64,000 bases of DNA from Mytilus edulis (lineage: Eukaryota): the NCBI RefSeq assembly GCF_963676685.1, contig NC_092355.1, positions 17,546,001 to 17,610,000 on the forward strand, in the 5' to 3' direction. A program made the position numbers and the translations under genes. Shown in pieces: positions 3,586 through 55,342 of the stretch. Below the pieces are notes generated by a model. The model was not told the origin of the DNA and did not search any database. It worked only from the letters and a program-made list of their open reading frames with translations. Each line of letters begins with the position of its first letter. The first letter of the stretch is position 1.

Positions 3586-5274
3586 TTAGGAAACATCAAA
3601 TAGAAATGCGATCTTGTTTTCATTTGCAACTAACAACTTGTTACTTGTTGGTTCGAAATGCAATCCACGCGGAGATTTAAGGCCATCACGAAAGGACAAT
3701 ATTGTTCTGCAACGCTTTCCATCAGGGGAAATGATAACCATACTGCTTGTATAATTACTGACAACATACACGTGTCCATTGCTGTCTACAGATATACCCT
3801 GTGGACATTGCAGGTTTTGTGTATCCTTAAATTCCCATTTAAGATTTCCATTGATATTGTAGCATGTTACAGAATGGTTGTTTATATTTGTATAATAGAT
3901 ATTGTCACCATGCACTGTAACAAACGAATAGGATGGCATACTAAAGCTAACAAGTGCCTTTTCTGATGCACCATTCAATTGAACTTCCATTATTCCTTTG
4001 CCTGACGTACAGTAGACAAGGACATTTTTATTCAGTGCTATACCATATGGAACTGAACTAGTTTTTACAGTTCTCTTGATCTTTCTGCTGTTAGGGTCAA
4101 TAATGTGAATAACATTTGAACCATAGCCACTGGTAACGGCAACGGAATTTTCTCTTTCAAAATATGCCAAATCAAATGCGCATGTATCTAGCCGAATTGC
4201 AAACTCATGCGTACCGTTGCTTTTCAACCCAATTAAATGTCGATTACTCCAATAACAGAACATCATCTTGCCATTTGGTAGAATTGCGCAACCTCTTACA
4301 TCCCCAGCAGATTTCAAATTGATTTGCATTTTGTTGTTTAGTTTGATATTATCAATGCATTTTGAAATTAAAATAGGTACGATCATCTGAGCTTGTTTGT
4401 TTTTGTTACTGCCAATAACAATTTTGCACGACTTTGACTCAACACTGACGGACCCAAAACTAGCAGTTTTACAAATGTTTTGTACTTCTTTATCAATAAC
4501 CAAAGAAAGGGTTTTTATTTTCATGTCCTCGCTTTTTAGGACAGACTGAATAATCTTTTCTTGGTCTAAAACCTCCTTTTCAATGTGCTTTAATGCAAAA
4601 AATGTTTGTAATTCTGATGCATGTTGTTTAATGGTACTTTGGTTAACCTGTAGGTCCGAAATTTCTTTTTCTATTTCCTCAATCTCAGACAACAACTGGT
4701 TAATTCTCTTACTTTCATTATTCTCTTTGGCATATAACTCTTTTATTAATTTCTCTTGGACTTTGTCTAAATGGTCGTTGATCATTTTCCGGGTTAGTTT
4801 TATATCACGTTCAATCTTTATTCTTTGATCCTGAAGACATTTAAAATTTTCCGTGCGGTCATTACGAATTCTGCATACATTTTCCAACATTTGGACCAGC
4901 GTTTGCTCTACTTCTAAAAATGCGTTCGATGCCTTAACATTTTGGACGATGTCATCTATTGCTTTTAAATCTTTACAATCATTATGTGTCTCTATAACAC
5001 ATCTTATACAGCACCGGCAGTCATGTTTCTTACAGAATGTTTGATATTGTTCTTTGTGTTTTTGACATGTTTGTGTTATTTCTAATACTTTCATTGGAAG
5101 CTTCTGGTACTCTGTGACAGGAATGATGCTATGGTTTCGAGATGATTTTGAAGCACCATGGTGCTCTTTACACTCGTCACAAAGTCCCTCGTCACATTCT
5201 GAACACCACACTACTGATGCTTTGTTGATGTTTCGGAAATCGCATATTCCACAAACAGTCCAATTACTCGCCAT
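3586..5274 (-). CDS. RING-less TRIM-like protein (B-box1, B-box2, coiled coil, NHL-like beta-propeller), copy 1, 562 aa
   Basis: ORF 3586-5373. Likely start is MASNW at 5274, preceded by acceptor-like TTTGTTTTGTAG-T. B-box1 CGIC..CSEC..CDECKEHH..H; B-box2 CQKH..CKKH..CIRC..H..C; heptad-rich middle; NHL-like blades (e.g. PQGISVDSNGHVYV, PRGLHF). Confidence 0.9.
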   Translation of the reverse strand: MASNWTVCGICDFRNINKASVVWCSECDEGLCDECKEHHGASKSSRNHSIIPVTEYQKLPMKVLEITQTCQKHKEQYQTFCKKHDCRCCIRCVIETHNDCKDLKAIDDIVQNVKASNAFLEVEQTLVQMLENVCRIRNDRTENFKCLQDQRIKIERDIKLTRKMINDHLDKVQEKLIKELYAKENNESKRINQLLSEIEEIEKEISDLQVNQSTIKQHASELQTFFALKHIEKEVLDQEKIIQSVLKSEDMKIKTLSLVIDKEVQNICKTASFGSVSVESKSCKIVIGSNKNKQAQMIVPILISKCIDNIKLNNKMQINLKSAGDVRGCAILPNGKMMFCYWSNRHLIGLKSNGTHEFAIRLDTCAFDLAYFERENSVAVTSGYGSNVIHIIDPNSRKIKRTVKTSSVPYGIALNKNVLVYCTSGKGIMEVQLNGASEKALVSFSMPSYSFVTVHGDNIYYTNINNHSVTCYNINGNLKWEFKDTQNLQCPQGISVDSNGHVYVVSNYTSSMVIISPDGKRCRTILSFRDGLKSPRGLHFEPTSNKLLVANENKIAFLFDVS

Positions 5275-5275
5275 A

Positions 5276-5287
5276 CTACAAAACAAA
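5276..5287 (-). promoter_or_regulatory. Putative splice acceptor immediately upstream of the TRIM ATG (equivalents at ~15707, ~31169, ~55344)
   Basis: TGTTTTGTAG-N-ATG is conserved in all four near-intact copies, and family-wide homology drops just upstream of it. Confidence 0.7.
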
Positions 5288-6624
5288 TGGTTCAGAATTT
5301 TAAAAATGGGAGACACAGAAGTTTTGACATCTTTACAGACAAATGTGATTAAGAAAAAAAATATTTTCAACAATATTACATATCATTATGCCCGGCTTGT
5401 CATTTTTCGATCGGCTAATGTCACGTCGTTAAAACACATAAGGCCACGGGTAATTCCACCAATTACCCCGGACAACTTCATGCTATTTTGTTCATATTCA
5501 AGGAATACTCAAAATATGTTATGAGACATTTCCGTTATTGTATCACTATTTCCGATTTATTTGTTTAGATGGTTTCCCTTTAGTCGACACTTATCGAATA
5601 TGTAGAGCTATTGTTTCAAAAGTCCAAGTGCTAGGAAACAAAGGATTGTTTTATAAGTAAACATCGTAGGCTCAAAATCCACAATTTTGATGTAACGTAA
5701 GTATTGTCGAAACTGTGTGCTTTTCCGACATTTAATCTTTAGGAAATCTTAAGCTGCAATCTACTATATCTATAATGTCAAATAACCAAAACCAGTCATT
5801 TTTTTTTTCTATGGTCGAGTTGTTGTCTCTTTGGCACATTCCCAATTTCCATTCTCAATTTTATTATCTGGATCAGGGGTTGCAGCTTAAATGAATTATG
5901 CAAAAAATCTGTACAATTTTGGTTAAACATTGATCCAAACTGAATTTTCATCACAGATAATTAATTTATCATTAAATTTTGATGCTGTCATTACTTACTT
6001 GTTCATGGCTGAGTTTTTTTGTTGGGCTTTGGCCACCCTTATTATTATTTTTTCATTTATATGCTCTTTTTTTGTTTAAGTTTTTGAATTTGAAATATTT
6101 TGGGCATCACTAAAACGACAATAACGAGCAAAATGAGCATCTTCAAGAGAAATTAAGACCGCATATCAGTCTATGGAAGAAGCGAATCGATATAAACGTT
6201 TCTTATATCAAGGAACCATATTGTCTCATATCAACGAGTTGCATTGTGGGAAATTTCAAACAAATGTTAGCATTTGTTCGAAGAAAAGCAGAATCCTTGG
6301 TACAAAGTAATGACTCTTTTTTGTAAACAGGGTGACATTTAATACGGCATACGTCTGATGTATAATTTATTTTATATAATAACAGTCAAGGTGTATTTAT
6401 ACGAGAAAATTTACTTGTTGAATGAATGAAATATAAATGCACGATTTGTAGCTGTACACATTCAATAAATATCTTGTAGCAAATCCAGTGGAACGCAATT
6501 GAGAAGAATTCAAGTGGTTGCTAAGCCAAAATCACCTATAAGTCAAAGATACTGCTATATTTTATTATGTCAATGCGATGTTTATATAATTAGTTATCAA
6601 CGGTATTAGGATTATAATCTAGTA

Positions 6625-6666
6625 CGCCAGACGCGCGTTTCTGCTACATAGGACTCATCAGTGAGT
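6625..6666 (-). ncRNA. Degenerate minimal type I hammerhead ribozyme (retrozyme fragment 6591-6666)
   Basis: Minus strand reads CTGATGA-GTCCTATGTAGCA-GAAA-CGCGCGTC-TGGCG; stems I and II are damaged. Confidence 0.6.
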
Positions 6667-8256
6667 AATAATAGTAATGTGTTTTTAATATCAACAATTT
6701 ATGAATGCGATACTTTTCTTATTTAACTGCTATAGTCTTCTTATATAAAATGAATACGATAACAAGTCACAATGCATTTCAAGAAAACCGCAAGCATAAT
6801 TCACAAACTTAGTTCATTTCCGGTTTTATAATAGTGTTTGAGTATCAATATCAATAACACTAAATTTAGTACCTATTACAAAATTACCGCTTAATATATG
6901 AACTTATTATTTCGAAAATATTATATTATATAAATTAATTATAATATATAACCAAAAAACATAGTATTCTGATTTGTATCACTATACAATTTAATAGTTA
7001 TTACGACGAGGTTGAATTGCCTGTCATTTATTCACCATTTATACTGGAACTTGTCTCACCCAGAAAAAATATATCTCGGTACATTAACCTCACTTTCAAG
7101 AAATTTATTGTTATTTTCTAAGACAAGTGTTTGTGACCATCCACAAGAATTTACGGTCATCCTGTGTTCAGTACTCAAGTACATTTTTTCCATTCTCAAC
7201 TTTATTCAATTTTCAGAGGCCTTGTCAAATTAAAAAAAAATCGCACATGCACTATCTCAAAAAGATTTTTACAGTGTAGTGTACTACTGGTGAAACAAAT
7301 AATATCAAAATTATTGTAATTTCTACCAACTCTAACGCAAAATACTGACAATTCTGTGTTAAGGGGGTGTAAAATTCAGTTTCAGACGAAATAAAATTTG
7401 TCCTTTTTTGACTAGAGCAAATCACTACTTAACTTAAAGATTCAGCACCCAAATGACGTTTTTGGAGGACTGGACAGCAATTATTTATAAGAGGATACGA
7501 TTTATAGATATAATAAGATGGTGTATAAGTACGGCCTTAAACGCGGAGCCTTGGCTCACAGCGAACACCACGCTATATAGAATCCCAAACAAATACTAGT
7601 GTTAAAAACCTTTCAAAGCGGGAAAACCAACAGTCTAATTTGTATAAAAAACGAAATTCAAAAGTGCAGGTCAGATTTTGTCGTATCAATCTGAACGAGG
7701 ACAATATGATTTATATTTTGCACAAGTAACTTTCATTGTAACCAAAAAAGAAAGTTTTCCGTGCGTGCATCGGGAGAATATCGGATATATATTATTTCGG
7801 TGCGTTCATTACAATTTGCTAGCTGTTATATATGTGAACAATCATTTTGATACTTAGCCATTTTATTATGACATTGTTTATAAAACCCTTATTTGATAAG
7901 TTTTGCTTCCAAAAAAAATTAGGAAATTTGAAAGATGTTACCAAAAATAATTTGAATGTCAGCAATGGTCATCAAACTGCTTATTTACATGCAATACTAC
8001 TGAGAAGTAAAATCACAAAAATGATAAATTCCGAGGAAAATTCAAAACAGAAAGTCTCTTATCAAATGACAAAATCAAAGTTTAATGATAAAACGCACCA
8101 AACGAAAGGACAATAACTGTCATAATTCTGAGTTCAAATTTTAAAAATGATGGATTGAACCTGGTTTTATAGCGCTTAACCTCTCACGTGTATTACAGTC
8201 TCGTCAAATTCAGTTATATTAATAATGATGCGTGAACAAAACAGACATAATAGGTA

Positions 8257-8713
8257 CTGTGTTTTTCACATATATGTTATGATGGTATGATACTAAACCC
8301 CTAACGGGAGGGATTGTACTTGATATTCATATGACGAAGACATAATCTTTTAATCAGTGTAATTGAAGTCTGAAGCTGGCATGTCAGTTTACAATTAGAA
8401 GTTTGTTGTTATTTATGTATTATTGTCATTTGTTTAGTTATTTTTGCTACATCTTCTGACATCAGACTCGGTCTTCTCTTGAACTGAATTTTACATTGAC
8501 TAGAGGTATAGGGGGCGGGGTTGAGATCTCATAAACATGGTGTTCATTACCACTGAACAAGTATGCATATTTATTTAGGGGCCAGCTGAAAGACGCCTCC
8601 GGGTGCGGGAATTTCTAGCTAAATTGAAGACCTATTGGCGACCTTCTGCTGTTGTCTGTTATATGGTCGGGTTGTTGTCTCTTTGACACATTCCCCATTT
8701 ACATTCTCTATTT
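8257..8713 (+). mobile_element. R1 retroposon with 11-bp TSD
   Basis: cataataggta at 8246-8256 and 8714-8724; inverse match to 2223-2696. Confidence 0.8.
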
Positions 8714-9051
8714 CATAATAGGTAAAATTGTCCAAAAAATTTGGTACAAGAGTCTAATATTAATACTAATAAGTACTAATATTGATATAACAAAACACTG
8801 CTATGATATTTTAAAATTATCGCATTAATATTAGAGTTAATAGCATTTGTTTATTTATGTATATAAGAAAAATGAAGCACATCAAATTTTACACAGACAT
8901 TAAATTTAGCTTTTAACCAACTTCTGAATGCATATTTAGACTCAATTGTTGTCTAAGAAAGTTTTAAAGTTCGTATTTTCTTAATTTTTCGTTGCCTAAA
9001 AACACTGTTTTCCGCATGGAATGTCTGCATATTTACAATTGATATAAGACA

Positions 9052-9644
9052 TTATCTTACCTCCTATACATTTCTAGGAATGTGATCTGTTAACAGCACC
9101 CTCATGGAGACCGTGTATATTTGATATTAGGCTAGTAGAGAGGTGGGGCTTATCTCATACACGGTTAGTAGTGATGTTACGTCCCTTTATGTTCCATATA
9201 AGAAAGTAGGGAGACAGGGCTTATTTCATACACGGTTAGTAGAGGTGTTACGTCCCTTTATAAAAGAAACGGTACTGAGAAAAAAAACGTTAAGGTTTCA
9301 AAAGACGAAGAAATTAATGATTCAGATTGAAATAAATTCATAAAACACATCTAAAACAAACAAGTTGTTATTGTTAGTATCTAGATCTGTTTTTTGTTAG
9401 ATCAATGGAAGTAGTTTCTTAATGCTAACATTATTTAAGACTTGCTCATTTTGATAGGTCTAAATTTCACACGTTAAGATAGTCGGTAAGATAAATTCGT
9501 TACATAGTGTGCTAGTGATCTAATATGGTATATATGGGGTCAGTACATTCCATATGGGGATTCGCGCTTAGCTCCCACCCCATATGGAATTTACTGACCC
9601 CATATATACTGTATTAGGTCACTAGCACACTATGTAACTAATAA
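9052..9644 (+). mobile_element. Non-autonomous element with long terminal hairpin (family H1)
   Basis: 61-bp arms at 9499-9559 and 9578-9638; 5' end ttatcttacc is complementary to ggtaagataa at 9485-9494; second copy at 47476-48073; interrupts the right TIR of 6167-9699. Confidence 0.75.
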
Positions 9645-10429
9645 TATCGCTGTGAGATATAACAAACGTTTTTTATCGATTCGCTTCCTCCATAGACTGC
9701 ATATGTTATTGCTAAAACTACATAGAAAACTCGGCGAATGAACTGCTAGACCAAAAATCTCTATAACGATACTCATATGTTGGTTTTTTTTTTATTTGTT
9801 TGACATGTTTGATAAGATATGGAATTTTAACATATCTAGCCTCGTTCACCACAAAAGAGACATTTATGGTCGAAATGCGCATCTGTACAGCGCAAGTAGT
9901 ACTGTTGAATGTCAAAAAAGAGTTTATTTTGTATAAATACTCAAGTAGTAGATTATCTATGTCAAATATGTAGTAATGAAACCCGATTAAAAAACGCCTT
10001 AAAATTGTAGGATCCATTTATTATTAGTTTATCAAGACTGTTGTAGCAACTCTATTAAAATCTGAAGTTAAAAATATTATCAAACAATGTCAAATAAATA
10101 TTGGTTGTGTATAAACAATATAAATATATCTATGAATTGTCATAAATCAGCTTTTCTTATTCTTTATCTGGAATGATCGATTTTTTTAAATAAATAGATC
10201 AAAACAATATGTTGTACACTTCAGAGTCTGTATATGGCAACGAATTGTAAATTGATGGGTGAAATAATGAAATGAAGACAATACGGCTGAAAAAATAGAA
10301 TTAACGACCATTAAGCACCCGCTTTCTAGAATCTCATTCTAAAGAAGTCACAATGACATTCTTTTTAAGTTCCCTAATCTGACTGCCTTTAACATTTATA
10401 ATTATATTCTGTTTATCTGAAAATGGATT

Positions 10430-10520
10430 AATTTGACTGTCCCTCTGGTATCTTTCGTCCCTCTGGTATCTTTCGTCCCTCTGGTGTCTTTCGTCCCTCT
10501 GGTATCTTTCGTCCCTCTTT
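10430..10520 (+). repeat. Penelope-like 3' tail with 18-bp unit (gtccctctggtatctttc) repeated about 4.5 times
   Basis: Matches the 3' end of the RT element at 63262-63299; the paralogous site at 58968-59042 has one unit fewer. Confidence 0.75.
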
Positions 10521-13500
10521 TGTATCTCTTGTTGCACACACACGTTCACTGTAATTGAATTGACCATCAAACTGCAAACTAAACCAGTTAAGATATATTT
10601 ACCAATCTAACAGGTCAAGTTCTAAATCTTTATAACTCACTACTTTTTTATTATAAAAGTAAAGTTTCACATTCTTTAAAAAGGTGTAAGTTCACGAATG
10701 GTCAAAATTGGTCCTAAGATTTTGAAAGTTTTTTTTAATCAGGCCATAATACTGCAAACAAGACAAAGAAATTGTTATGATACTACAAAATAACTTAAGC
10801 TTTACACATCATTTTAAATATGACGATGTCTTGATTATTTGAACACTGTTGATTTTCAAAAATTCTTAACCTTTTTAAGCATATTTTACTTTATCCGCCA
10901 TCAAAAATCAAGAACGTTATTGTGTCTAGGGATTCATTCTCATCATTATTAGCAAATCTTTGTAACAGACCATTCGTATCCTAGGTAAAGGCAAAGGGAT
11001 TCCATAGGCTTTTATGTCCGTAAATGCACACAATCATCGTATTTTGATTTTGTAGCGTATTGAGGGATTTCTTTTTGCAAGGAAGTAAATCATTTGAAAT
11101 AGATCCATTGATAAACAACCAAATCTGGCCATTAGGAAATTTTGTGATCAAGCTGAAGTTCAAGTTATCAATGTTTTGTATGGTAGACATCGTGTGTGTT
11201 TTAACTGAAATTAGTCTGAATAAACTATTACCATTCTAACTTAACAACAAACGAAAGCAGTGAGTTCTTTGGAGTTCGGTATTGTTTTGTTTTACTTTTT
11301 GGTATGTAGTTAATATGACCGGTCTCTCTATTGTAGTACATAAAGGTCAATTCGATCATTATAAGACCGCCGGATAGGTCTACCTTACAAACAATTATGA
11401 ATTTAAAATTGGTTGCATTTTCATATCAATGAGTTTCTCATATTAGTTTATAATGTTGAAGTGGTTGCATATCAATCTTAAAAAAGGCCATTTTTTTCAA
11501 AAAAGGGCGTGTGGGTAACCTATTGATTCTTTTTGAAGTGAAATAAATAATTATAGATAGTTGGTAAATATCATATTATCTAGCTATAGTACAGATTAGC
11601 TATGGCAAATCTAGATCTCTGAACACGTTAAATGTGTGTGTAATGTAGGCGTCATTCAATTCCGTATTAAATTTACATTACAAACTGGTATGCTTTAGTA
11701 AATAAGAGTCACTTTTAACAATGGAATGATTAAAACGGATTATGTATAGATTATTATACCTTAAAAATCATCAAAAGGCGTCAAAATGGTTACAAAACAA
11801 AAACCTTCGCCACAACAAGGAAGGTAAATATGGTCATATGATAGCTACTTTCTATAGACAATAAAGTTATAATAGCGCGGGTATTTCAAACAACATTTTA
11901 TTGTGATCATACAATCAAGTCAAAATACAATTTCATGGTTTAAAAGAGAAAATCCGACACTTTTGTATGTGAGTGCATATAAACAAAGTAATATAAAATA
12001 TAAAGTGAATCAATGATGACCTGTCTGGTTGTATTCAGGAGTATAGGAAATTATTCAGGGTTACATTTGAATTTTCGAAATATTTTTTTTAATTTTTGTA
12101 TTCAGATATTTATGAGGTATATATACTATGCCACCATGGTAGTTGTAATTCATTAAAGATGCTTGTTCCGATTCTACACTATAAGGGTGGAAAATGACCT
12201 TTAGCGAATTGAAAAATAAGTTGTAAATATGTATTAACTTTTTGCAGTAAATGTCAAAATTTAAAGATTTTACAATACAATACAACTTAAACAACCAAGA
12301 TAAAATATATTAAACATTTTATGAACAATTAGCTAAAATTGTCTCTACTAAAATGCATGGTAGAGAATAAAATAATAAAAAAAATAATGAAAATAATAAT
12401 GAAGTCAAATGAAAATTCAAATAGAAAAGTCTCTATACAAATGACAAAATCAAAATCTCAAAGACATCAAATAAATAGAAATCAACTGTCCAATTACTGC
12501 CTTTATTCATGCGTTTCCTTATGTAGATCACTATGATAAATTGATTTGTCTCAGTTCTTAGTATTAATGGTGAGACGTTAATAAACTATCTGTCTATCTA
12601 TTTATCCTAAACCAACATAAAACAAAAAGACAAAACAATTTGACGAAAGTAGGGTGTCCAAACTAGTTTACATTACATTAATAATAGATTTTAGATAAGT
12701 TTTACTTTTTAATTCAAAAGGAGAAGTTGGTACAACTTAAAAAATTCAAACGCTATCAATCAACAACCCTACCATATTCATTACTAAGTATAAAATGACG
12801 GGTTAAATTTGGTTTTGTAGCTAGCTAAACCTCAAACTTGTATGAAAGTTATGTTGACAGTATTAGATAAACAACCTAAAGTGACATGATAAGTTAATCT
12901 AAATTAAATATACATCACAAATATACAACACAGCAGACTAACAGATTCAGACAAAAATTCAAATAAAAATTGATCCCGAATAATAGTTTTAGTCGTTCTT
13001 TGTACATGTACTACAGTACACATTTTCTAGGTAAGGTTAAAAAAAATGAAGCAAATACAAAAACAGAGGGAACAAAATGGAAATAACACTGTAACCCCTG
13101 TGTGATCTAATCACAACTTAGGACACATCTATAACTGGGACTGCAGTGTTAATTGACGTCTTAGATATGATTCAATTTATCAGTAAAATACATTATTTCC
13201 AAAAATTTGAATTTTTCCCAGAATGCATTTGTCCTGATAATGAGGGAAATTTCTTTTGAAGTGTCGCTACGCGGTATGGATATTTGAAAAGGTTACGGGT
13301 GTAAAAATTTAAATCCAAGCCAATTAATCAATATATACAGACATTTCAAATGCAGTCAATCTATATCAAATACAATTTTTATAATCTATATTTCACAGTT
13401 GTTAAAACTTGTTGGTCGATCTATTTTTAATAGTCTACCACTGTATATATAACGGACCCATTTAAAATTAATTTTCCTTTAGTGACAACTCTAAGGAGAA

Positions 13501-14013: not shown

Positions 14014-15705
14014 TTAGGAAACATCAAATAGAAATGCGATCTTGTTGTCATTGGCAACTAACAACTTGTTACTTGTTGGTTCGAAATCCAATGCACGCGG
14101 ATAACTGAGGCCATCACGAGAGGACAATATTGTCTTGCAACGCTTTCCATCAGGGGTGATGATGACAACGCTGTGTGTTTTCGTACTGGCCACATACACG
14201 TTTCCATTGTTGTCTACAGCTATACCTTGTGGATATCGCAGGTTTTGTGTATCCTTGAATTCCCATTTAAGATTTCCATGGATATCATAGCATGTTACAG
14301 AATGGTTGTCTTTATTTGTATAATAAATATTGTCACCATGCACTGCAACATACGAATTGGATGGCATATTAAGTTGAACAAGTGCCTTTTCTGATTCACC
14401 ATTCAGTTGAACTTCCATTATTCCTTTACCTGGCACTGAGTATACCAGGACATTCTCATTGAGTGCTATACCATATATACCGTATATACTACTTTGTATA
14501 GTTCTCTTGATTGTTCTGCTATTAGGGTCAATAATGTGAATAACATTTGAACCATAGCCACTGGTAACGGCAATGGAACTGTCTCTTTCAAAATATGCTA
14601 AATCAAATGCGCGTGTATCTAGCCGAATTTCAAACTCATGCATACCGTTGCTTTTCAACACAATTAAATTTTGATTACTATAATCACAGAACATCATCTT
14701 GCCATTTGGTAGAATTGCGCAACCTCGAACATATCCAGCAGATTGCAAATCAATTTGCATTTTATTGCTTAGTTTGATATCATCTATGCATTTGGAAATT
14801 AAACTAGGTATCATCATCTGAGCTTCTTTGTTTTTGTTACTGTCAATAACAACTTTGCACGATTTTGAATCAACACTAACGGACCCAAAACAATCAGCCC
14901 TGCAAATGTTTTGTACGTCTTTGTTAACCTTCAAAGTCAGTGTTTTTATCTTCATGTCATCGTTCTTAAGGACAGACTGAATACATTCTGCTTTATCAGA
15001 AACCTCTTTTTCAATGTGCTTTAATGCTAAAAATGTTTGAAGTTCTGATGCATGTTGCCATATGTTATTTTGGCTACCTTGCAGGTCAGAAATTCCCTTT
15101 TCAATGTCTTCAATCTCACACAACAACAGCTTTATTCTCTTACTTTCATTTTCTTCATTAGCATATAATTCTTTAATTAGTGTGTCCTGTATTTTGTCCA
15201 AGTGGTCGTTGATCATTTTCCGGGTTTGGTTTATATCACGTTCAATCTCTTCCCTCTGATCCTGTAGACATTTTAAATTTTCTGTGCGATCGTTACGAAT
15301 TCTTTGTACATTTTTCAACATTTGGACCAATATTTGCTCTACCTCTAACCACGCATTCGATGACTTGACATTTTTTACGATGTCCTCTATTGCTGTCAAA
15401 TCATTACAATCATTATGTGTCTCAATAACACACCTCCGACAGCACGGGCAATCATGTTTCTTACATAATGTTTGATATTGTTCTTTGTGTTTTTGACATG
15501 TTTGTGTTATCTCTAACACATTTGTTGGTAGCTTCTGATATTCTGTTATTAAAATAGTGTCATGGTTCCTAGTTGATTTTGATGCACCGTGGTGCTCTCT
15601 ACACTCGCCACAAAGTCCCTCGTCACATTCTGAACACCACACTACTGATGCTTTGTTGATGTTTCGGAAATTACATACACCACAAACAGTCCAATGACTC
15701 GCCAT
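14014..15705 (-). CDS. RING-less TRIM-like B-box/coiled-coil/NHL protein, copy 2, 563 aa
   Basis: ORF 14014-15837. MASHW at 15705 follows TTTGTTTTGTAG-A; colinear with copy 1 over the full length. Confidence 0.9.
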   Translation of the reverse strand: MASHWTVCGVCNFRNINKASVVWCSECDEGLCGECREHHGASKSTRNHDTILITEYQKLPTNVLEITQTCQKHKEQYQTLCKKHDCPCCRRCVIETHNDCNDLTAIEDIVKNVKSSNAWLEVEQILVQMLKNVQRIRNDRTENLKCLQDQREEIERDINQTRKMINDHLDKIQDTLIKELYANEENESKRIKLLLCEIEDIEKGISDLQGSQNNIWQHASELQTFLALKHIEKEVSDKAECIQSVLKNDDMKIKTLTLKVNKDVQNICRADCFGSVSVDSKSCKVVIDSNKNKEAQMMIPSLISKCIDDIKLSNKMQIDLQSAGYVRGCAILPNGKMMFCDYSNQNLIVLKSNGMHEFEIRLDTRAFDLAYFERDSSIAVTSGYGSNVIHIIDPNSRTIKRTIQSSIYGIYGIALNENVLVYSVPGKGIMEVQLNGESEKALVQLNMPSNSYVAVHGDNIYYTNKDNHSVTCYDIHGNLKWEFKDTQNLRYPQGIAVDNNGNVYVASTKTHSVVIITPDGKRCKTILSSRDGLSYPRALDFEPTSNKLLVANDNKIAFLFDVS

Positions 15706-20337: not shown

Positions 20338-20434
20338 TTAAGAAGGGATATAATTACGATACTGTTGTCAGGTCATTAAAGATTGCATATTTTGGCTTTA
20401 ATATTGATTCACTTATAGTATCTTTGCATCGGAA

Positions 20435-24679: not shown

Positions 24680-25775
24680 GACGGCTGTCTATAGATGCAG
24701 TATATGGATATTTAAGATTTGTTCTATCTCTAAACACATTTGTATATTTTACTAATAATGGTGTGTGTTTGAAGAACGTTTAATGTTATCAGATAAGATG
24801 TTTTGTTAACCAATCATGATGTCCAACATTTGAGCAATGAAATAGAATGAATTATTACACAATAAATCAAAGTAAATAATTAGACGGATTAAAGTACATT
24901 TAAACAAAAAAACATGTATACACATTTTGCAATATAAACAATATAATTGACAAAACCTAACTGTGCTCGACTTCGACTCGACTTTAACTGACTTAACATT
25001 GGACTCAATGCATTCTCTACTTGTTAATTACTCACAGACGAAAGAGATTTGTCTTCGTGCCTTCGCTTTAAATACCAAACTGAACCGTCTTTTTCAATGT
25101 GCTTAAATGCTAAAAATGTGTATAGTTTTAAAGACATGTTGTTGTATTTTATTTTAATAAACATGTAAATCAGAAAATCATTTTCCTCAATCGTTGACAA
25201 CGCATGTTAAATTGTCTTGCGTAGATTTTTGTTTTTGCATATATTTCGTTTAATAGATTCTCTTGTACTTTGTTTAATGGATCGTTCATCAATGCACTCG
25301 TGAATGGTTTATTATTTCAATATGTTATGCCACAATTCGACCATCATTTGTTTTACCACAAGAAATGAATTATCAGTATGTGATTTTATATTTTTAACAG
25401 TATTATCGATTTCCTTCGGATCTGTACATTATATCTTTATAACACATCGTCTTGAATTCCTGATGAAGATTAATCCAGAAAAACGCTTTTGATGCATGGA
25501 ATTTATAACATTTTGTTTTCATTTTATCCACAACAAGAACAATCATACTTCTTACAGACACGTTAGTGTGATTTGTGGTAAATTCAACGGTAGTTTCTGG
25601 TGCTCTGTAACAGGTATAATGCTAAGTAATATAGATGCAATTACTGCACCATTTTATCTACACCCTTCACAAAGTCCCTAATCACAGACGAAACACCGCA
25701 CAACAGACGATTTTTGTATGTTTGTGAAGCTACAATTGCCACATACTGAATAATTATTAGTAATACTCAAAACAA
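24680..25775 (-). pseudogene. Highly decayed, internally deleted TRIM-like paralog
   Basis: Nucleotide matches to the family: 25668-25775 (cacaaagtccctaatcacagacgaaacaccgcacaac vs cacaaagtccctcgtcacattctgaacaccacactac, B-box1; ATG changed to ATT near 25764); 25090-25145 (ttttcaatgtgcttaaatgctaaaaatgt, coiled coil); ~24684-24735 (gctgtctatagat.., blade 5). No long ORF. Confidence 0.75.
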
Positions 25776-28071
25776 AAACCAAAAACTTAATTTGACATAA
25801 TTATGCCTTAATAGATTAGATGGTCTCCTTTTTGCGATACCAGCGGGCGTTTTGAACGTTTTTGTTTTCAGTGATGATCAAGGCAAGAATTTTCGAAAAC
25901 CAAACAGTTGATATAAAAGTTGATGCGCTGCTACAATCAAAAGAGACCAAATGTTTGTCAAAACCCGGATAATTCATAGAGAACTGTAAAATGTTTACAA
26001 GGAACATCAAGGGTTTTTTGTCAAGTTTTTTTAATGATACTGTCAAGTTGACATAGTAATGTCTTCAAAAATATGTTTTAGTTAAAAAAAAATGAATATA
26101 GGAAGACGATTCCTTATTATCAAATTAAAAGTGTAAGGCGTTGAATTTCCTGCTATAAAAGACAATTCTTATTTTTTTCTAAATTTTTAGTTTCTATTAT
26201 CAAAATTATCAAACAAAGGCTTATAGAAAGGATAGCATTGCTTATTCAATGTGACAATTACCCACCACTTAACACCAACATACGTATGTCTTGCTAATAA
26301 ATATATGTCTCAAGCATGGTGCAATAATTGCAAACATCCGAATGAATTTCGTTTTGCATGCATGTATAATTTAATCAAGCATGTTGGAGACCAATAATAT
26401 GGAAAGCTACACTTATGAAACTTTGGGTGTTGTGGGCATTCATATAAATAGATAAATATTTACAAAGGGCAATAATTTTATTGATGAAACACAATTATTG
26501 TCAATAAAGAATGCCATTTTATACTTTCCAAAATCAAATGTGTAGTTTTAGATTATCAATGAATGGTGTATTAGTTGTTTAAAGCTTATAAACTACGCGT
26601 CGAACAATCATTACAAAAGTATTTTCTATAATAAGTAAAACGAAGACAGCCGCATGTCTCATTAAAATGAATTAAATGAAATTGTTGGATATAATAATCA
26701 TATAACCTATATAATCTTCATTAATCAGTCGTCAAAGGAATTAACTCTAAGAGAAACCGTCGTCACGAGAACTCGATGAAGGAGGAATAATAGTCATTGC
26801 ATCAGGAAGAGTGCATGTGAGTTGTGTGAGTGTGAGACAACATAGAACATACATATGTATATGACAGACAGATTCCTTTTCTTTTTATCTTCAGCTGTAT
26901 TTAGTTCTCTTATATTTGATACGTTTCCCTCAGTTTAAGTTTGTAACCCGGATTTGTTTTTTCTCTATCGATTTATGAGTTTTGAACAGCGGTATACTAC
27001 TGTTGCCTTTATTTATATTCCACGTACAAATTTCAAATTTTCAAAACGTATTTTTGTAAAGAAATAAAAGGAATAGGTGCCTAGTGCAACTCAATTGCGT
27101 GTTGGGACATAAATGTCGAAAACCAAAATATATCCCAATACAATCTATGTGTTAGTGTAGAGGATATGTCACATATTCCACATATATAATAACTCTGAAG
27201 TCGAAATCATACTGACAAACGAGAAAGGACTAATAGACAAACAACAATGCACAAATCACAACATAGAAAAACTCAAAAGTGGGGAATACGAACTCTTAAT
27301 AAATCGGAGCGATTACATGATCTCTGGAATAGTAAGCTGATCTGACTCCACATGTGACACTCGTCGGGTTTCTCCTTTAAAATATGTTTATCAGTTGTAT
27401 CACGTCATAAGACAATGCGCAATACCTGACTGTTAACTGACTTTTATCTAACCTTTAAACATCATTAAAGTTATACACTATTGGTCATGTATATTTCAAA
27501 CTTATATAATTAATCAAATCGAAATTTTGAAATTAAAACATCTTTTCATAACACAGGATAGATAACGGGTATCAACAGCATATGCATTTAAAACAAACTC
27601 TACGAACAACTATAAAAACTAAAGCATACGAAACACAAACCCGATCTCAGGTGTTCGGAAAAGTTGAACAAACCCTGCTATTAAAAGATATTCCTCATGT
27701 GGTGTTGCTCGTGTAAATGTGTAAGTATAAAAGTCTAATTGGGAACGTTATATTCAAGATGAAATTTTATGTAAGAAATTTGCAGGTCGTAGATTACGAC
27801 CTTTGTAGGAGTTATGTAATCAAATTATGTATAACAAACAATTTTCGTTGCCACAGCCTCATCATTTTATACCCTATTATAACACTCACTTATATGTTCA
27901 TAATTATAAATTAACTATTAACAAAGCTTTGAATTTTTGAAATACTAAATGCTTTTCTACCTCAGGAATAAATTACCTTAGCTGTATTTGGCAAACCTTT
28001 TAAGAATTTTTGGTCCTCAATGTCCTACAACTTCATACTTTATTTGGCCTTTTTAACATTTTTGATTCGAG

Positions 28072-29479: not shown

Positions 29480-31167
29480 TCAAGACACATCATATAGAAA
29501 TGCGGACTTGTTTTTATTTGCAACTAACAACTTGTTACTTGTTGGTTTGAAATGCAATCCACGCGGAATATATAGGCCATCACGAGAGGACAATATTGCT
29601 CTGCAACGCTTTCCATCAGGGGTAATGATGACAACGCTATTTGTATCCATACTGACAACATACACGTTTCCATTGTTGTCTACAGATATACCCTGTGGAT
29701 GTTGAAGATTTTGTGTATCCTTAAATTCCCATTTAAGATTTCTGTGGATATCATAGCAGGTTACAGAATGTTTGTCTCTATTTGTATTATAAATATTGTC
29801 ACCATGCATTTGAACACACGAATGGGATGGCATTCTAAATTGAACAAGTGGCTTTTCTGATGCACCATTCAATTGAACTTCCATTATTCCTTTGCCTGAT
29901 TTACAGTATACCAGGACATTTTTATTCGTTGCTATACCATATGGATGTTCACTACTTTGTATAGTTCTCTTGATCGTTCTGCTGTTAGGGTCAATAATAT
30001 AAATCATATTTCCAAGATAGCCACTGGTAACGGCAATATAATTTTCTCTTTCAAAATATGCCAAATCAAATGCGCGTGTATCTAGCCCAATTTCAAACTC
30101 ATGCGTACCGTTGCTTTTCAACCCAATCAAATTTCGATTATTATTATCACAGAACATCATCTTTCCATTTGGTAGAATTGCGCAACCTCTTACATCCCCA
30201 GCAGATTGTAAATTGATTTGCATTTTGTTGTTTAGTTTGATATTATCAATGCATTTTGAATTAAAATAGGTACCATCATTTGAGCTTGTTTGTTTTTGTT
30301 ACTGCCAATCACAATTTTGCACGACTTTGACTCAACACTGACGGACCCAAAACTAGCAGTTTTGCAAATGTTTTGTACTTCTTTATCAATAACCAAAGTA
30401 AGGGTTTTTATTTTCATGTCCTCGCTTTTCATGACAGACTCAATAATCTCTTCTTTGTCCAAAACCTCCCTTTCGAAGTGCTTTAATCCTAAAAATGTTT
30501 GTAATTCTGATGCATGTTGTTTGGTGGTACTTTGGTCATCCTGTAGGTCCAAAATTCCCTTTTCGATCTCCCCAATCTCAGACAACAACTGCTTAATTCT
30601 CTTACTTTCATTTTCTTCATTATCATATAATATTTTTATGATCTTCTCTTGCACTTTGTCTAAATGGTCGTTGATCGTTTTTCGGGTTTGGTTTATATCA
30701 CGTTCAATCTTTACCCTCTGATCCTGTAGACATTTTAAATTTTCTGTGCGGTCATTCCGAACTTTTCGTACATTTTCCAACATTTGGACTAGTATTTGCT
30801 CTACCTCCAGAAATGCATTCGATGATTTGACATTTTGGACGATATCATCTATTGCTGTTAAATCTTTACACTCATTATGCTTCTCTATAACACATCTTCT
30901 ACAACATGGGCAATCATGTTTCTTACAGAATGTTTGATAGTGTTCTTTGTGTTTTTGACATGTTTGTGTTATCTCTAACACATGTGATGGTAGCTTCTGA
31001 TATTCTGTAATGGAAATAGTGTCATGGTTCCTAGTTGATTTTGATGCCCCATGGTGCTCTCTACACTCGCCACAAAGTCCCTCGTCACATTCTGAACACC
31101 ATACAACCGAGGATTGCTTTATGTTCCGGAAGTCACAGACACCACACATAATCCAAGTACTAGCCAT
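29480..31167 (-). pseudogene. TRIM-like copy 3 with a single 1-bp frameshift (pseudogene, split gene or sequencing error)
   Basis: ORFs 30232-31386 (MASTW at 31167) and 29480-30223 together give the full protein. ttttgaattaaaat at ~30254-30267 versus ttttgaaattaaaat in copy 1; span 1688 nt versus 1689 nt. Confidence 0.85.
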
Positions 31168-39412: not shown

Positions 39413-39680
39413 AATGTGGTATGATGCATGAGACTAGTAATTTTCTATAGGAGACATCCTCTGTTCAATGTGGTATGGTATATGAGACTAGTTCTTGTCT
39501 ATAGGACTCATCTACTGTTCTTTGTTGTATGGTATATGAGACTTGTTAGGTTTTATTAGGGGACTACTACTGTTTCTATGTGGTATGGTATATGAGACCT
39601 GTCAGTGTTCTTTAGAAATATCTACTGTTCTATGTGGTATGGTATATGAGACTTGTCAGTGTTTTAAGGAGACATCTACG
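39413..39680 (+). repeat. ~49-bp degenerate minisatellite (tgtggtatggtatatgagact..) in B1; copy at ~41930-42197
   Basis: About 5 diverged units. Confidence 0.75.
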
Positions 39681-40249: not shown

Positions 40250-40847
40250 GTACCGGTTGGGATCTACCGCAGGAATTCTCATTTTTCAAATTTATACCCG
40301 TCTGGGCTCTACCAGTCAGGTTCTAATAGTACCTGTTGGGATCTACCGCAGGAATTCTCATTTTTCAAAATTCATACTTGTCTGGGCTCTACCACTCAGG
40401 TTCTAAAAGTACCTGCTGGGATCTACCGCAGGAATTCTCAGTTTTCAAAATTCATACTTGTCTGGGCTCTACCACTCAGGTTCTAAAAGTACCTGCTGGG
40501 ATCTACCGCAGGAATTCTCAGTTTTCAAAATTCATACTTGTCTGGGCTCTACCACTCAGGTTCTAAAAGTACCTGCTGGGATCTACCGCAGGAATTCTCA
40601 GTTTTCAAAATTCATACTTGTCTGGGCTCTACCACTCAGGTTCTAAAAGTACCTGTTGGGATCTACCGCAGGAATTCTCAGTTTTCAAAATTCATACTTG
40701 TCTGGGCTCTACCACTCAGGTTCTAAAAGTACCTGTTGGGATCTACCGCAGGTATTCTCATTTTTAATATTTATACCTGTCTGGGCTCTACCAGTCAGGT
40801 TCTAAAATAAATTTTTCACCTGTCAGGGCTCTACTGCAGGTTCTTAA
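40250..40847 (+). repeat. 80-bp tandem satellite, 7 units plus a half unit, in repeat B2
   Basis: Same unit and same count as 38462-39059. Confidence 0.95.
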
Positions 40848-41069
40848 AATTGCATAATTTAGGCAATTTATTTTCTAACTAATTTAGGTAGTGTTTTTCG
40901 ATTTGGTTATTTTAATTAGTATTTTTGTAAGTTTTAATGAGTAGCCCCCTAGAAAGCCAAATGATACATTTATTATTATTTTCATATGTATTAAGTATAA
41001 TAGATTTAGAATTGATTGTGAATATGATACTAGTATACTGTGTATACAATATGGTGTCTTAGTATATTA

Positions 41070-41798
41070 TATAGATATAGGAAGATGTGGTGTGAGTGCC
41101 AATGAGACAACTCTCCATACAAATAACAATTTAAAAAGTAAACCATTATAGGTTAAAGTACGGCCTTCAACACGGAGCCTTAGCTCACACCGAACAACAA
41201 GCTATAAAGGGCCCCAAAATTACTAGTGTAAAACCATTCAAACGGGAAAACCAACGGTCTAATCTATATAAACAAAACGAGAAACGAGAAACACGTATAT
41301 ATTACATAAACTACTGTACATCAGATTCCTGACTTAGGACAGGTGCAAACATTTGCAGCGGGATTAAACGTTTTAATGGATCCAAACCTTCTCCCTTTTT
41401 CTGAAACAATAGCATAACATCACAACAAAGAAAAACATACGATAAAATATCAATTGGCAGACTTAACTCAATCAAAAAACGTATGATTAAACAATGAACG
41501 AATAAATTTGATCTGCGATATCTGAATACAAATGCACAGTAATTAAATATTAGAGACAAACATTCATGACCAAAAAGCTAACAAACAAATTCAAAAACAG
41601 GACATGACTGAGAAATATTTAACCAATCAATGTTCACTTTAGAAAAAAACCGGTTTTTTTATAATCTTGAAGTTTATACAAATGTTGTAAGAATAAGTGA
41701 AGATATTACAAATAATCAAACCTGGTGTACAGACAAGATCCGTATAAATAAAAAATGACAAAAAAGCATTATAAACAGTATCAACAGGTCGAATTAAA
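41070..41798 (-). mobile_element. R2-like retroposon inserted into B2
   Basis: 729 bp absent from B1 (agtatatta|gtttgtt); no TSD seen. Confidence 0.85.
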
Positions 41799-43687
41799 GT
41801 TTGTTAATAAAATTAGAATAGTTATTATACAGTTTTGCATAAATATCAAGTATCCAGTATGGCAGGATAAATGTTCCATTCAAGTAGAACATTTCCTTTT
41901 CTACTCTTAGTATCTATATTAGTATAGATTATGTGGTATGATGCATGAGACTAGTAATTTTCTATAGGAGACATCCTCTGTTCAATGTGGTATGGTATAT
42001 GAGACTAGTTCTTGTCTATAGGACTCATCTACTGTTCTTTGTGGTATGGTATATGAGACTTGTTAGGTTTTATTAGGGGACTACTACTGTTTCTATGTGG
42101 TATGGTATATGAGACCTGTCAGTGTTCTTTAGAAATATCTACTGTTCTATGTGGTATGGTATATGAGACTTGTCAGTGTTTTAAGGAGACATCTACGTTT
42201 CTGACAGGAATAGGTATAAACATTTATTTTTATTTACACAAATGTGAAGACACGCACAGATAAGGGACGATACATGCACGTTGGACAATACACTCAAGAT
42301 TAATAAAAAGAAAATGTATTTCTATGTTACAAATATTCAAAAAATAGAGTTATCAATACACGTTTATTGTGAAGACATACAATAGTATATAAGCGTTTCT
42401 GTAAGTCTCGATTACAATTATTAGTCTAATCATTTTCGTTCACAATAATAAAAGAGGGACGAAAGATACCAGAGGGACAGTCAAACTCATAGACAACGCC
42501 ATGGCTAACATTAAAAACACAAACAGACAAATAACAGCACAGAAGACACAACGGACATATACTTTTTAGTAGATATTTCAAAGAGGACAGAAACGTTTTG
42601 GGGTATATTCAGAAGGTAGGACATATCTCTTTTTAGGGAAAAATACGAATTACACTGTAAATACTGCATTCTGTTTGTTAAACATATGAAATGTCTGAGT
42701 GACCAAATTAAGTCATTTCAAGTCATTTCTATATAAATACAATGAGGTGTATCATGATTGCCAATAAGACAACTTCATTGGTTTTAGGAACATTTTTCTA
42801 AAAATACAACTATTTTGTCGTGCCATGCTATATATGTTTTCAGTGTCATAAATAGTCATAAAAAGATGAAGACTGTATTTCTAAATAGAAAAACTAAAAA
42901 AGTGCTTGATATTGTATTTATGATGACATCTTGATAAACACAGATAGATAATGACATTGAAACAGCATTACAAGACAAGTAAATTATTGAATTCAGTATG
43001 TCATGCGTAATTCGTGCTAAATTTTGATTTTGCTGGTTCAAAGTTTAACAAGAGTCTGCAGTTGAATCATAAATAAGAGATTGGTACATATGTTTGGTGA
43101 GTGTAAACCACTGGTTCCTTTATACTTAACAAAATAAGAAAACATTGAACGATATATTGCTGACACATGGTAAAAATCCTTTTTTGTTTGCTCTGAACGT
43201 CTTTTCTCCCTTTTCTGTATTTATTACAATCAAATTAAAAACATGATACTTTTTCACCAATTAAATAAATAAACAGCGGTTTCCCTCCATGGTTATTTTA
43301 GTCGGGGAATAACCCCTAGTTTTGTATACAAAACTGTTTATAGCACCCTTTACCAAGTGCAACATCTCAGAGTGTCACTCCAGACAGACAAAGGGCAACA
43401 TGACAGCAACCCTTACAAGAGAGCAGAGACAACTCATTCCAACTTCACAGTTTTCTCCGTCACCAAACAACACACACTGCAGTAACTGCTGTACCGTCAC
43501 CTACTATTAGACTACCAACTTCCACTTAATAAGTTCCATCAGGAAATATGTTCAATGTGATAGACAGTAAATTTCAGCACATACCCTCACAGTGCCAGAT
43601 TGGAGCATGTGATCTAGTTCGGGAATTAATTCATCATTGGGACTGGGTAATTTTTCCAAACATTTGTTGGAATTAATTTTTACCTAG

Positions 43688-52010: not shown

Positions 52011-53671
52011 ATTACAAACATCCGACCTTAAAGGGAAAGACTAGTTTTTATTTATATTTACTTGAAAGTAACTTAAATTCTTTTTATTTTTCCATGTACG
52101 CAATTATCACATTGTTTATTTACATTTTCTGTTACAAGTTTTTTATTATTGTTTTTAAGATTTACAACAAATACAACACATCAAACATACATACAGTAAT
52201 ATTAGTGATAGATTTGAATATATATATTTATTTATGACAATAAACATTGTTGTAAATTAAATTTTTTCTATTTATATGAAGAAAAAAAGAAGAAAATATA
52301 ATTAGAGTTAAATGTGTATGTACCACTGTGTGGCATGGCATCTGAGAATTGTAAAGAATTTTATAAAAAAAAAAGGAAGAGGTTAAAAAATATCCCGTTA
52401 GATTTTCAGTACATAATAAATTGTGCTATCAGATACAATAATATTTTATGTTAGTTTTAACAATAAATATAGATTGTAAAAATAAATGACAAATTGAATT
52501 ATAAAAGTAATACTTTAAATGCATTCCTCATGGTATCAAAGTGTTTTTGTCTCTAATTTTTTCTAAATTGTACATATATTTTAATTTTCTTTAATGGCAC
52601 TGACTGCAAGATCTTCTGAAAAAGCATCTACTGTTGTATATATATTGTTTATTGTTATATCTGTTACAAGTTCTTTATAATGTTATATGTTCATAAAAAA
52701 CCTCACAAGAGCTTGAAGAAGAAAGGAATGCAACAGAGGCACAACTACTTCTTAAACACGATAAAGTTATTATAGCACGGGTATTCCAATATGATATCAC
52801 TGTAGCTAATACATGTAATACATCAGGAAAAGTTCATGTATGAGACAATATAAGACAATAATACTAAGTATATCAAATGAAGATGCCTAGATGTTTTCTC
52901 TATAGATACACTCTTTGAAACTATCACATTTGAAATAACATCGAAATTTTTACAATGCATTACTGTAACGAAAAAAGTAAACATCCACTATCTAGTGCAG
53001 GAGAAGATATCCAGTTTTTTTGTGGTAAAGTATAATAGTTTATCTTACAGGAGAGAGACGACAGATATTAAAAGTATATCCCAACTCATTAGTCATCAAC
53101 AAAATGAATACTGTATGGCAAAGAACGAAAAAAAAAGACGAAAAGACAAACAACAGCCAAAACAACAACATGAACAGTATAGATTGACCAAACACTGGAA
53201 GGGGTATCAGATACTCTTGACTGGAAAGTAGAACCTGCTTCACATCCGTTATGTTGCTCAGAAAGTTTAATCCTGATAATAAGTGAAATTTTGTGATTAG
53301 CAAGGAGAGGCGCACACAAGAAAACCAACAATGTCCATGGATGTTTATTCTATTCACTCATCGTTGTCAATATCATAAAATTTTATGCGACTGTCAAACA
53401 ACTGAGAGGTGTAGCTAGCTGTAAAATTTAAAATATTTAAATACGTTATTATAAATAGTTTAAGCATGTCACTAATTCAGGTTGCTCCGTTCTTTAACGC
53501 CAATTTCATAGTGCGTTTATTTATAAAAACGCCAAAATATTCGCCTCCACCTACAGCGCTTCGATCCAAAAGAATTGCCGAATTTGTCCTATAAGAATCG
53601 AAATAATTCAAGCCCTCATGAATAATTTCTTAAACAAATAGGTTTTCAGTTAAAAGTTCACAGAAGTTATT

Positions 53672-55342
53672 TTAGGAAACATCAAATAGAAATGCAAATT
53701 TAGTTTGATTTGCAACTAACAACTTGTTACTTGTTGGTTCGAAATGCATTGCACGTGGAATATTGAGGCCATCACGAGAGGACAATATTGTTCTGCAACG
53801 CTTTCCATCAGGGGAAATAATGACAACGCTGTGTGTATCCGTACTGACAACATACACGTTACCATTGCTGTCTACAGATATACCCTGTGGATATCGCAGG
53901 TTTTGTGTATCCTTAAATTCCCATTTTAGATTTCCATGGATATCATAGCATGTAACAGAATGGTTGTCTCTATTTGTATAATAAATATTGTCACCATGCA
54001 CTGCAACATACGAATAGGGTGGCATTTTAAATTGAACAAGTGCCTTTTCTGATTCACCATTCAGTTGAACTTCCATTATTCCTTTACCTAACTTACAGTA
54101 TACCAGGACAGTTTTATTCAGTGCTATACCATATTGAGCATCCCTAACTTTTATAGTTTTCTTGATTCTTCTGCTGTTAGGGTCAATAATGTGAATAACA
54201 TTTGAACCACCGCCACTTGTAACGGCAATGGAATTTTCTCTTTCAAAATATGCTAAATCAAATGGGCGTGTATCTAGCTGAATTCCAAACTCATGCATAC
54301 CGTTGCTTTTCAACACAATTAAATTTGAATCACAGAACATCATCTTGCCATTTGGTAGAATTGCGCAACCTGTAACAACTCCAGCAGATTGCAAATCAAT
54401 TCGCATTATGTTGCTTAGTTTGATATCATCTATGCATTTGGAAATTAAACTAGGTATCATCATCTGAGCTTCTTTGTTTTTGTTACTGTCATTAACAACT
54501 TTGCACGATTTTGAATTAACAATAACGGACCCAAAACAATCAGCCCTGCAAATGTTTTGTACGTCTTTGTTAATATTTAAAGCCAGTGTTTTTATCGTCA
54601 TGTCCTCGTTCTTAAGGACGGACTGAATACATTCTGCTTTATCAGAAACCTCTTTTTCAATGTGCTTTAATGCTAAAAATGTTTGAAGTTCTGATGCATG
54701 TTGCCTGATATTATTTTGGTTTCCTTGGAGGTCAGAAATTCCCTTTTCAATGTCTTCAATCTCACACAACAACAGCTTTATTCTCTTACTTTCATTTTCT
54801 TCATTAGCATATAATTCTTTAATTATTTTGTCCTGTATTTTGTCTAAGCGGTCGTTGATCATTTTCCGGGTTTGGTTTATATCACCTTCAATCTCTACTC
54901 TCTGATCCTGTAGACATTTTAAATTTTCTGTGCGATCGTTACGAATTCTTTGTATGTTTTTCAACAGTTGGACCAATATTTGCTCTACCTCTAACCACGC
55001 ATTCGATGACTTGACATTTTTGACGATGTCCTCTATTGCTGTCAAATCATTGCAATTATTATGTGTTTCAATAACACACCTCCTACAGCACGGACAATCA
55101 TGTTTCTTACAGAATGTTTGATAGTGTTCTTTGTGTTTTTGACATGTTTGTGTTATCTCTAACACATTTGTTGGTAGCTTCTGATATTCTGTAATTGAAA
55201 TAGTGTCATGGTTTCTAGTTGATTTTGATGCACAATGGTGCTCTCTACACTCGCCACAAAGTCCCTCGTCACATTCTGAACACCACACTACTGATGCTTT
55301 GTTGATGTTTCGGAAATTACATACACCACAATTACTCGCCAT
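53672..55342 (-). CDS. RING-less TRIM-like B-box/coiled-coil/NHL protein, copy 4, 556 aa
   Basis: ORF 53672-55468. MASNC at 55342 follows TTTGTTTTGTAG-A; small in-frame deletions relative to copy 2. Confidence 0.9.
   Translation of the reverse strand: MASNCGVCNFRNINKASVVWCSECDEGLCGECREHHCASKSTRNHDTISITEYQKLPTNVLEITQTCQKHKEHYQTFCKKHDCPCCRRCVIETHNNCNDLTAIEDIVKNVKSSNAWLEVEQILVQLLKNIQRIRNDRTENLKCLQDQRVEIEGDINQTRKMINDRLDKIQDKIIKELYANEENESKRIKLLLCEIEDIEKGISDLQGNQNNIRQHASELQTFLALKHIEKEVSDKAECIQSVLKNEDMTIKTLALNINKDVQNICRADCFGSVIVNSKSCKVVNDSNKNKEAQMMIPSLISKCIDDIKLSNIMRIDLQSAGVVTGCAILPNGKMMFCDSNLIVLKSNGMHEFGIQLDTRPFDLAYFERENSIAVTSGGGSNVIHIIDPNSRRIKKTIKVRDAQYGIALNKTVLVYCKLGKGIMEVQLNGESEKALVQFKMPPYSYVAVHGDNIYYTNRDNHSVTCYDIHGNLKWEFKDTQNLRYPQGISVDSNGNVYVVSTDTHSVVIISPDGKRCRTILSSRDGLNIPRAMHFEPTSNKLLVANQTKFAFLFDVS

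Follow-up and report, generated by a model that had tools for sequence, protein, structure and literature searches.

A variable NHL-propeller face in a large gene family of Mytilus edulis: a candidate repertoire of cytosolic sensors

The stretch of Mytilus edulis DNA analysed here (the window, 64,000 nt) contains four co-oriented minus-strand copies, three intact and one frameshifted, of a gene for a RING-less protein with B-box1, B-box2, a coiled coil and a six-bladed NHL propeller. Amino acid changes among the paralogs are concentrated in loops on one face of this propeller, the top face. We are fairly confident that positive selection on the propeller is real. Selection at about 10-17 top-face sites is supported, but it is sensitive to the model and its size is uncertain, with omega (the ratio of nonsynonymous to synonymous substitution rates, dN/dS) anywhere between about 1.5 and 6. 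The family likely represents a germline repertoire of cytosolic sensors, whose variable top face would bind copy-specific foreign ligands, probably proteins; we give this reading slightly better than an even chance. In its evolution the family resembles teleost finTRIMs and fungal WD40 NLRs; the immune role is inferred.

The domain order is B-box1, B-box2, coiled coil, linker and propeller, and each coding sequence (CDS) consists of a single exon. The B-boxes match Pfam PF22586 and PF00643, and all 68 proteins share 15 invariant Cys/His positions; the N-terminal half matches the B-box/coiled-coil region of TRIM28 (profile match, E 1.4e-11). In an AlphaFold2 model built for copy 2 from a 42-row alignment (mean predicted local distance difference test score, pLDDT, 80 and about 90 or more in most propeller blocks; predicted template modelling score 0.50), B-box 2 is followed by a long coiled coil (helix 117-218 and 221-246), and the propeller has 24 strands in six blades, closed by an N-terminal strand. 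Its best Foldseek matches in the PDB are the NHL domains of Thin, TRIM2, NHL-2, Brat, Mei-P26 and TRIM3 (E down to 1e-15), at 12-21% identity to known TRIM-NHL proteins; Pfam picks up just one NHL repeat per protein. No RING was found in the Pfam scan, and the C3HC4 pattern was matched by none of the 68 proteins. Thus, the description of the copies as TRIM-NHL paralogs in an earlier note on this DNA stands for the B-boxes, the coiled coil and the NHL fold, but the RING of true TRIMs is absent. The Pfam scan also gave no NACHT/NB-ARC or effector domain, and according to Pfam and Foldseek the C-terminal domain is an NHL propeller and not a B30.2/PRY-SPRY domain.

The copies are part of a tandem cluster. 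With the propeller of copy 1 as query, 23 close paralogs were found between 17.35 and 17.74 Mb on C12. All 23 have minus-strand orientation, and 11 of them have an intact full open frame. Genome-wide, this query gave 1,438 candidates, of which 150 were scored and all 150 matched, while a B-box query gave 1,680 candidates; the family comprises more than 1,000 candidate loci. For the analyses below, 80 further loci were drawn from the 150 matches, and 72 of the resulting 110 loci have intact frames (68 distinct proteins). Selection was tested in ten intact cluster paralogs (L021, an outlier with 59% identity, was left out) and in 42 genes from nine other tight clades.

The earlier note had quoted 12 variable patches for each of the four copies, and all 48 strings are present. 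In the copy-2 model, in which faces were assigned by strand order and not by coordinates, all 12 patches lie in or at the edge of DA or BC loops. These loops make up the top, ligand-binding face of NHL propellers (passages of PMC4015489). Alignment columns with at least three states number 20 of 68 in the top loops, 0 of 46 in the bottom loops and 6 of 138 in the strands, and so are not spread over both faces (Fisher p=2.5e-8 for the top loops vs the rest of the propeller, 9e-6 vs the bottom, four window copies). The earlier note had also placed the propeller indels in the patches; both indels that separate the four copies map to top loops, and so do 13 of 18 propeller indel events across ten clades. 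The strand cores, which had been called nearly invariant, are indeed more conserved than the top loops (pairwise identity 82-88% vs 58-69%), but that wording is too strong, since 38 of 138 strand columns vary.

GY94 site models (F3x4, M0 branch lengths rescaled, naive empirical Bayes, NEB) were fitted with custom code. For the propellers of the ten cluster paralogs the likelihood-ratio test (LRT) statistic was 65.1 for M1a/M2a, and the comparisons named in the earlier note gave 78.8 (M7/M8) and 63.8 (M8a/M8), with omega 5.0 at 6.5% of sites. The N-terminal half of the same paralogs, the scaffold, differed from the propeller in showing no signal of positive selection (LRT 0.2 or less; M8 vs M8a 0.18). 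Ten of the 13 sites with NEB>0.8 lie in DA/BC loops, and two more are located immediately before one. In the nine other clusters M8a/M8 was significant at p<0.05 for the propeller in seven (six after Bonferroni correction) and for the N-terminal half in one. When the best 25 sites were pooled over the ten clades, 24 were on the top face, and the recurrent fast sites (aa 325, 343, 365, 384, 408, 425, 449, 450, 509 and 534 in copy 2 numbering) are all in DA/BC loops.

This pattern was also seen outside the site models. At hot sites picked from the other clades only, divergence at first and second codon positions exceeded four-fold divergence in ten of ten clades, with bootstrap P<0.01 in seven. 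In the cluster of the window the respective values were 0.49 and 0.20, with 0.18 for the intron; the four-fold value is taken only where the first two bases match and may be too low. The 3' flank was dropped as a neutral yardstick, because it is probably non-homologous (mean p 0.36, range 0.04-0.54). A mutational hotspot is unlikely to be the sole cause, as silent divergence is raised just ~1.15-1.2-fold (four-fold divergence at and beside the hot sites was 1.14-1.19 times the expectation). The cleanest test case in the family is the young cluster L031-L038 (C1 66.69-66.90 Mb), in which omega for the top face, defined a priori, was 2.1 (LRT 5.9). Ser, Tyr, Asp, Asn, Gly and Arg are frequent at the hot sites, where 18% of the residues are Tyr, Trp or Phe vs 1.6% in the bottom loops, a composition which we take to resemble that of antibody paratopes.

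Several results weigh against a repertoire under selection. As classes, the top loops, strands and bottom loops of the window's cluster have omega values of 0.95, 0.32 and 0.68, and top-loop omega was 0.59-0.96 in eight of the nine other clusters and above 1 in just one (2.1). The earlier note had expected dN/dS above 1 in the patches and had regarded a value of 1 or less as refuting its claim; for whole loops the value is below 1. What remains of the proposed diversifying selection is a site-level signal that is limited to the propeller and recurs in independent clusters. This signal depends on the model: the M1a/M2a LRT of the cluster dropped from 65 to 32.3 when multi-base changes were allowed, to 12.0 with site-rate variation and to 7.2 with both (p=0.027), and with both corrections three of the nine other clusters stayed significant (pooled p=0.0035). 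Rate variation removed about half of the LRT even under true selection (six simulations), but the real data needed an alpha of ~1, whereas pure-selection simulations gave 6 or more. Cross-validated omega based on the sites' own dS was ~1.5, with an LRT of 4.3 for 10 sites and non-significant values of 2.2 and 1.6 for 15 and 20 sites. Recombination is pervasive in the window's cluster (PHI p=0.002) and was detected at silent sites too. Furthermore, 12 of the 23 cluster copies are broken, copy 2 has no recognisable first exon, and the code used was not PAML.

Taken together, could these results mean that the top loops drift near-neutrally under relaxed constraint, with conversion mosaicism and multi-base changes mimicking omega>1 and without any recognition role? 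The class omega of 0.95, the p value of 0.027 under the strictest model and the many broken copies agree with this, and conversion alone can indeed raise the LRT, up to 16.1 in 14 neutral simulations with heavy conversion. However, the observed LRT of 65, and the 47.7 still obtained for the cluster propeller with blade-wise trees, are above all of these simulations. Moreover, a small set of positions comes up repeatedly in independent clusters from four chromosomes, divergence is higher at replacement sites than at silent sites in every clade, the young C1 cluster has top-face omega above 1, the bottom loops remain constrained and the hot sites are enriched in aromatic residues. We therefore regard near-neutral drift as rather unlikely.

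A different possibility is genuine selection with targets other than pathogen proteins, the family members being diversified RNA- or protein-binding regulators derived from Brat/TRIM71-type RNA binders and engaged in genetic conflict with RNAs or proteins of transposons or other selfish elements. The nearest folds are in fact RNA-binding TRIM-NHL domains using the same face, and R327 is kept in 30 of the 68 proteins. Brat, too, has no RING. TRIM56 binds viral RNA via its NHL-like domain (PMC11768893). On the other hand, a count of residues, which is not an electrostatic map, gave for the extended top face of the 68 proteins a mean net charge of -1.5 (range -11 to +6), and no invariant basic residue was present among 30 tabulated top-face and pore positions. 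By this count the conserved electropositive top face of TRIM-NHL RNA binders was not found in the 68 proteins. The lack of a uniformly basic face argues against a Brat-type RNA ligand common to the family. We consider the genetic-conflict explanation unlikely.

For the sensor repertoire a cytosolic location is probable, because no hydrophobic segment suggesting secretion or a membrane anchor was found by sequence (in 68 proteins, hydropathy does not exceed 1.71 in any 19-residue window). TRIM proteins dimerise by their coiled coil and cluster on a target by their B-boxes. By analogy, coiled-coil dimers would display two propellers, and B-box 2 would cluster the dimers on a repetitive target. 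Because RING is absent, the target could be coated or sequestered, or a RING-bearing partner could be recruited. New specificities would arise by duplication, by point changes at hot sites and, now and then, by replacement of a blade segment, and conversion would keep the scaffold interchangeable, while many copies die in a birth-and-death process.

Conversion tracts are biased to the scaffold. In region-wise Sawyer tests with 18 copies, 18 of 153 pairs were significant in the N-terminal half and one of 153 in the propeller, the numbers of variable sites being similar (418 and 396), and the tracts involve broken copies. In the C1 cluster the scaffold is almost homogenised, its four-fold divergence being 0.03 vs 0.15 for the propeller; three of ten clades show the reverse, and in a fourth the difference is near zero. 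Compared with L017, the protein P0049, which comes from a different M. edulis assembly, has 5 changes in 311 N-terminal residues, and 14 of its 19 propeller differences fall within residues 338-365. Judged by sequence, this fits a blade-segment replacement in one allele; an assembly chimera would be the alternative. P0002 has an L012-like scaffold but a different propeller, and in P0052 the clustering of differences in blade 6 was not significant (P=0.053).

It is tempting to speculate further that mussels, and probably other molluscs and echinoderms, have an unrecognised cytosolic receptor repertoire of a thousand genes, with a paratope-like top face on an NHL propeller. The converted scaffold would then allow heterodimers of paralogs, blade swaps between haplotypes would create individual-specific binders, and RING-bearing partners would provide the output. 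We put this forward as a possibility that is more doubtful than not. The relatives in the ESM Atlas are mostly mollusc clusters, plus one echinoderm cluster that has a RING.

Comparison with known systems shows likenesses and differences. The teleost finTRIM, btr and trim35 families and primate TRIM5alpha resemble the mussel genes in clustered lineage-specific expansion, a conserved N-terminal scaffold, positive selection in C-terminal loops and recombination between paralogs (excerpts of PMC2657112 and PMC3137616). Like these, the mussel family shows clustered expansion with recombination and positive selection in ligand-facing loops, the strength of the latter being model-dependent. In contrast to their B30.2/PRY-SPRY domain, it has an NHL propeller, no RING and a single coding exon, and its more than 1,000 candidate loci compare with 84 zebrafish finTRIMs. 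Virus induction is a feature of the finTRIMs; the mussel family is known here from sequence and assembled RNA contigs. In the fungal NWD/HET WD40 NLRs of Podospora, propeller repeats have few selected positions each, on the interaction face, and are exchanged between members; their function is non-self recognition (both from parts of PMC4986451), as we infer for the mussel proteins. The latter have no NACHT or effector domain, their six blades are fixed in number and not near-identical, and conversion mainly homogenises the scaffold and not the repeats. Because domain content differs, the family belongs neither to the finTRIMs nor to the fungal WD40 NLRs.

TRIM-NHL proteins (Brat, Mei-P26, Thin, NHL-2, TRIM2/3/32/71) share the two B-boxes, the coiled coil and the six-bladed NHL fold, but they are regulators present in few copies, and their top face is basic and binds RNA, while that of the mussel proteins is hypervariable and not uniformly basic, and RING is missing. 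TRIM56 also combines B-boxes, a coiled coil and an NHL-like domain in a cytosolic antiviral factor; it differs in being a single gene with a RING, in needing E3 activity against flaviviruses and in binding viral RNA (sections of PMC11768893).

Members of the cluster bear automatic names of the kind known from bivalve 'TRIM2/3/45/71-like' genes. Many oyster transcripts with TRIM names are associated with Perkinsus tolerance and OsHV-1 survival (portions of PMC9892467 and PMC9437489), and are set beside the mussel family by name only. The expansion is already on record as domain counts: rows of Table S52 in PMC7653742 show, for the dispensable genes of M. galloprovincialis, an enrichment of the B-box (1,133 domains) and of the six-bladed propeller (1,410), vs 673 for C1q. 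In the available parts of PMC8382680 and PMC5549309 B-box families appear in tables only, and family-related terms gave nothing in the main text of PMC7653742, PMC12373286 and PMC10514466. In the literature covered, which is thin on subscription journals, we found no paper on this family as such, on its top-face selection or on NHL propellers as selected receptors. Published domain tables already reveal the expansion, while the top-face selection apparently has not been described in that literature. If the proteins are variable cytosolic sensors, they would fill a missing layer of intracellular recognition in bivalves, and they would give structural meaning to the TRIM matches in oyster disease-resistance studies. 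Few domains are commoner in mussel dispensable genes than the B-box and the six-bladed propeller, yet members of the family carry the labels 'uncharacterized' or 'E3 ligase TRIM-like' despite having no RING. Since about ten positions are defined, specificity is directly testable by swaps of residues or blades.

The features of the window are as follows, all on the minus strand.

3586..5274, minus strand: copy 1, intact single-exon CDS of 562 aa (B-box1/B-box2/coiled coil/linker/six-bladed NHL propeller); its protein is P0001
5276..11759, minus strand: intron in the 5'-untranslated region (5'-UTR) of copy 1, with GT..AG borders seen in the sequence; the acceptor lies 1 nt ahead of the ATG
11760..12050, minus strand: first exon and upstream block of copy 1, non-coding, conserved; 5' end unmapped
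14014..15705, minus strand: copy 2, intact CDS of 563 aa; exact sequence present in NCBI/UniRef
14017..14772, minus strand: propeller of copy 2, aa 312-563
25081..25764, minus strand: badly degraded B-box/coiled-coil fragment from a diverged relative (31% identity), interrupted by many stops and frameshifts
26593..26770, minus strand: sequence weakly homologous to the first-exon block (nhmmer E 4e-8), located upstream of the decayed fragment
29480..31167, minus strand: copy 3, full length, frameshifted by the loss of 1 bp near 30258, immediately ahead of the propeller; no homologue of the first exon
53672..55342, minus strand: copy 4, intact CDS of 556 aa with a 3-aa deletion in the blade-1 BC loop; its protein is P0006
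61954..62262, minus strand: first-exon block of copy 4, by homology, non-coding, donor site present, block partly deleted

An RNA contig of run X19 links 5274 to 11763 across the copy-1 intron of ~6.5 kb; the four letters at the joint fit the transcript of a paralog. In the spliced leader an in-frame TGA is located four codons before the ATG in eight of eight intact paralogs tested. Therefore no RING can be added from the non-coding first exon, and an upstream RING exon was rejected. Longer frames from upstream ATGs of copies 2 and 4 were also rejected, as they read through the intron, and the 594-aa form of copy 2 is absent from the protein set. No strong first-exon homologue was found upstream of intact copy 2, intact L011 or broken copy 3 (the search included window positions 15706-29479 and 31168-53671). 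The intron of copy 2 resembles that of copy 4 until ~17617, ahead of a repeat-rich stretch; copy 2 may be promoterless or served by a different first exon. Copy 3 is probably a pseudogene, since it carries the deletion and lacks a first-exon homologue. Of the four copies put forward in the earlier note, three are thus intact.

Missing first exons and the common orientation of all 23 copies would suit somatically diversified or shared-first-exon receptors comparable to VLRs or protocadherins, in which pseudogenes and exon-less copies form a donor or splice library; the participation of broken copies in conversion tracts points in the same direction. Yet most intact copies own a first exon, and the long significant tracts are in the scaffold and hardly in the propeller, which makes such a system very improbable.

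The subfamily is transcribed: RNA contigs from three studies cover the CDS of copy 2, in the best case differing at 3 of 211 bases, but they do not single out a given copy. Window positions 21716-23251 are nearly without RNA cover, yet covered in run X1. The best share of copy 2's sequence words found in any sequencing run was 0.43, which we did not take as proof of presence-absence variation.

The decayed fragment of the window is one of three from a single diverged subfamily (window 25081-26770, C12 17391213-17392760 and C12 17416997-17418691). Each has a weak first-exon homologue, and the fragments were duplicated along with the array. Long open reading frames that, as judged by eye, resemble remnants of the reverse transcriptase/endonuclease of long interspersed nuclear elements (LINEs) are located within the cluster at C12 17512773-17516466 and 17706427-17707404, and P0005 (615 aa) seems to be a gene-model fusion of a LINE-like piece with a family member. 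Finally, the window contains very recent local duplications, 99.3-99.6% identical, at 38347-42220 and 34690-34988, which include 80-bp (seven units) and 54/110-bp tandem repeats.

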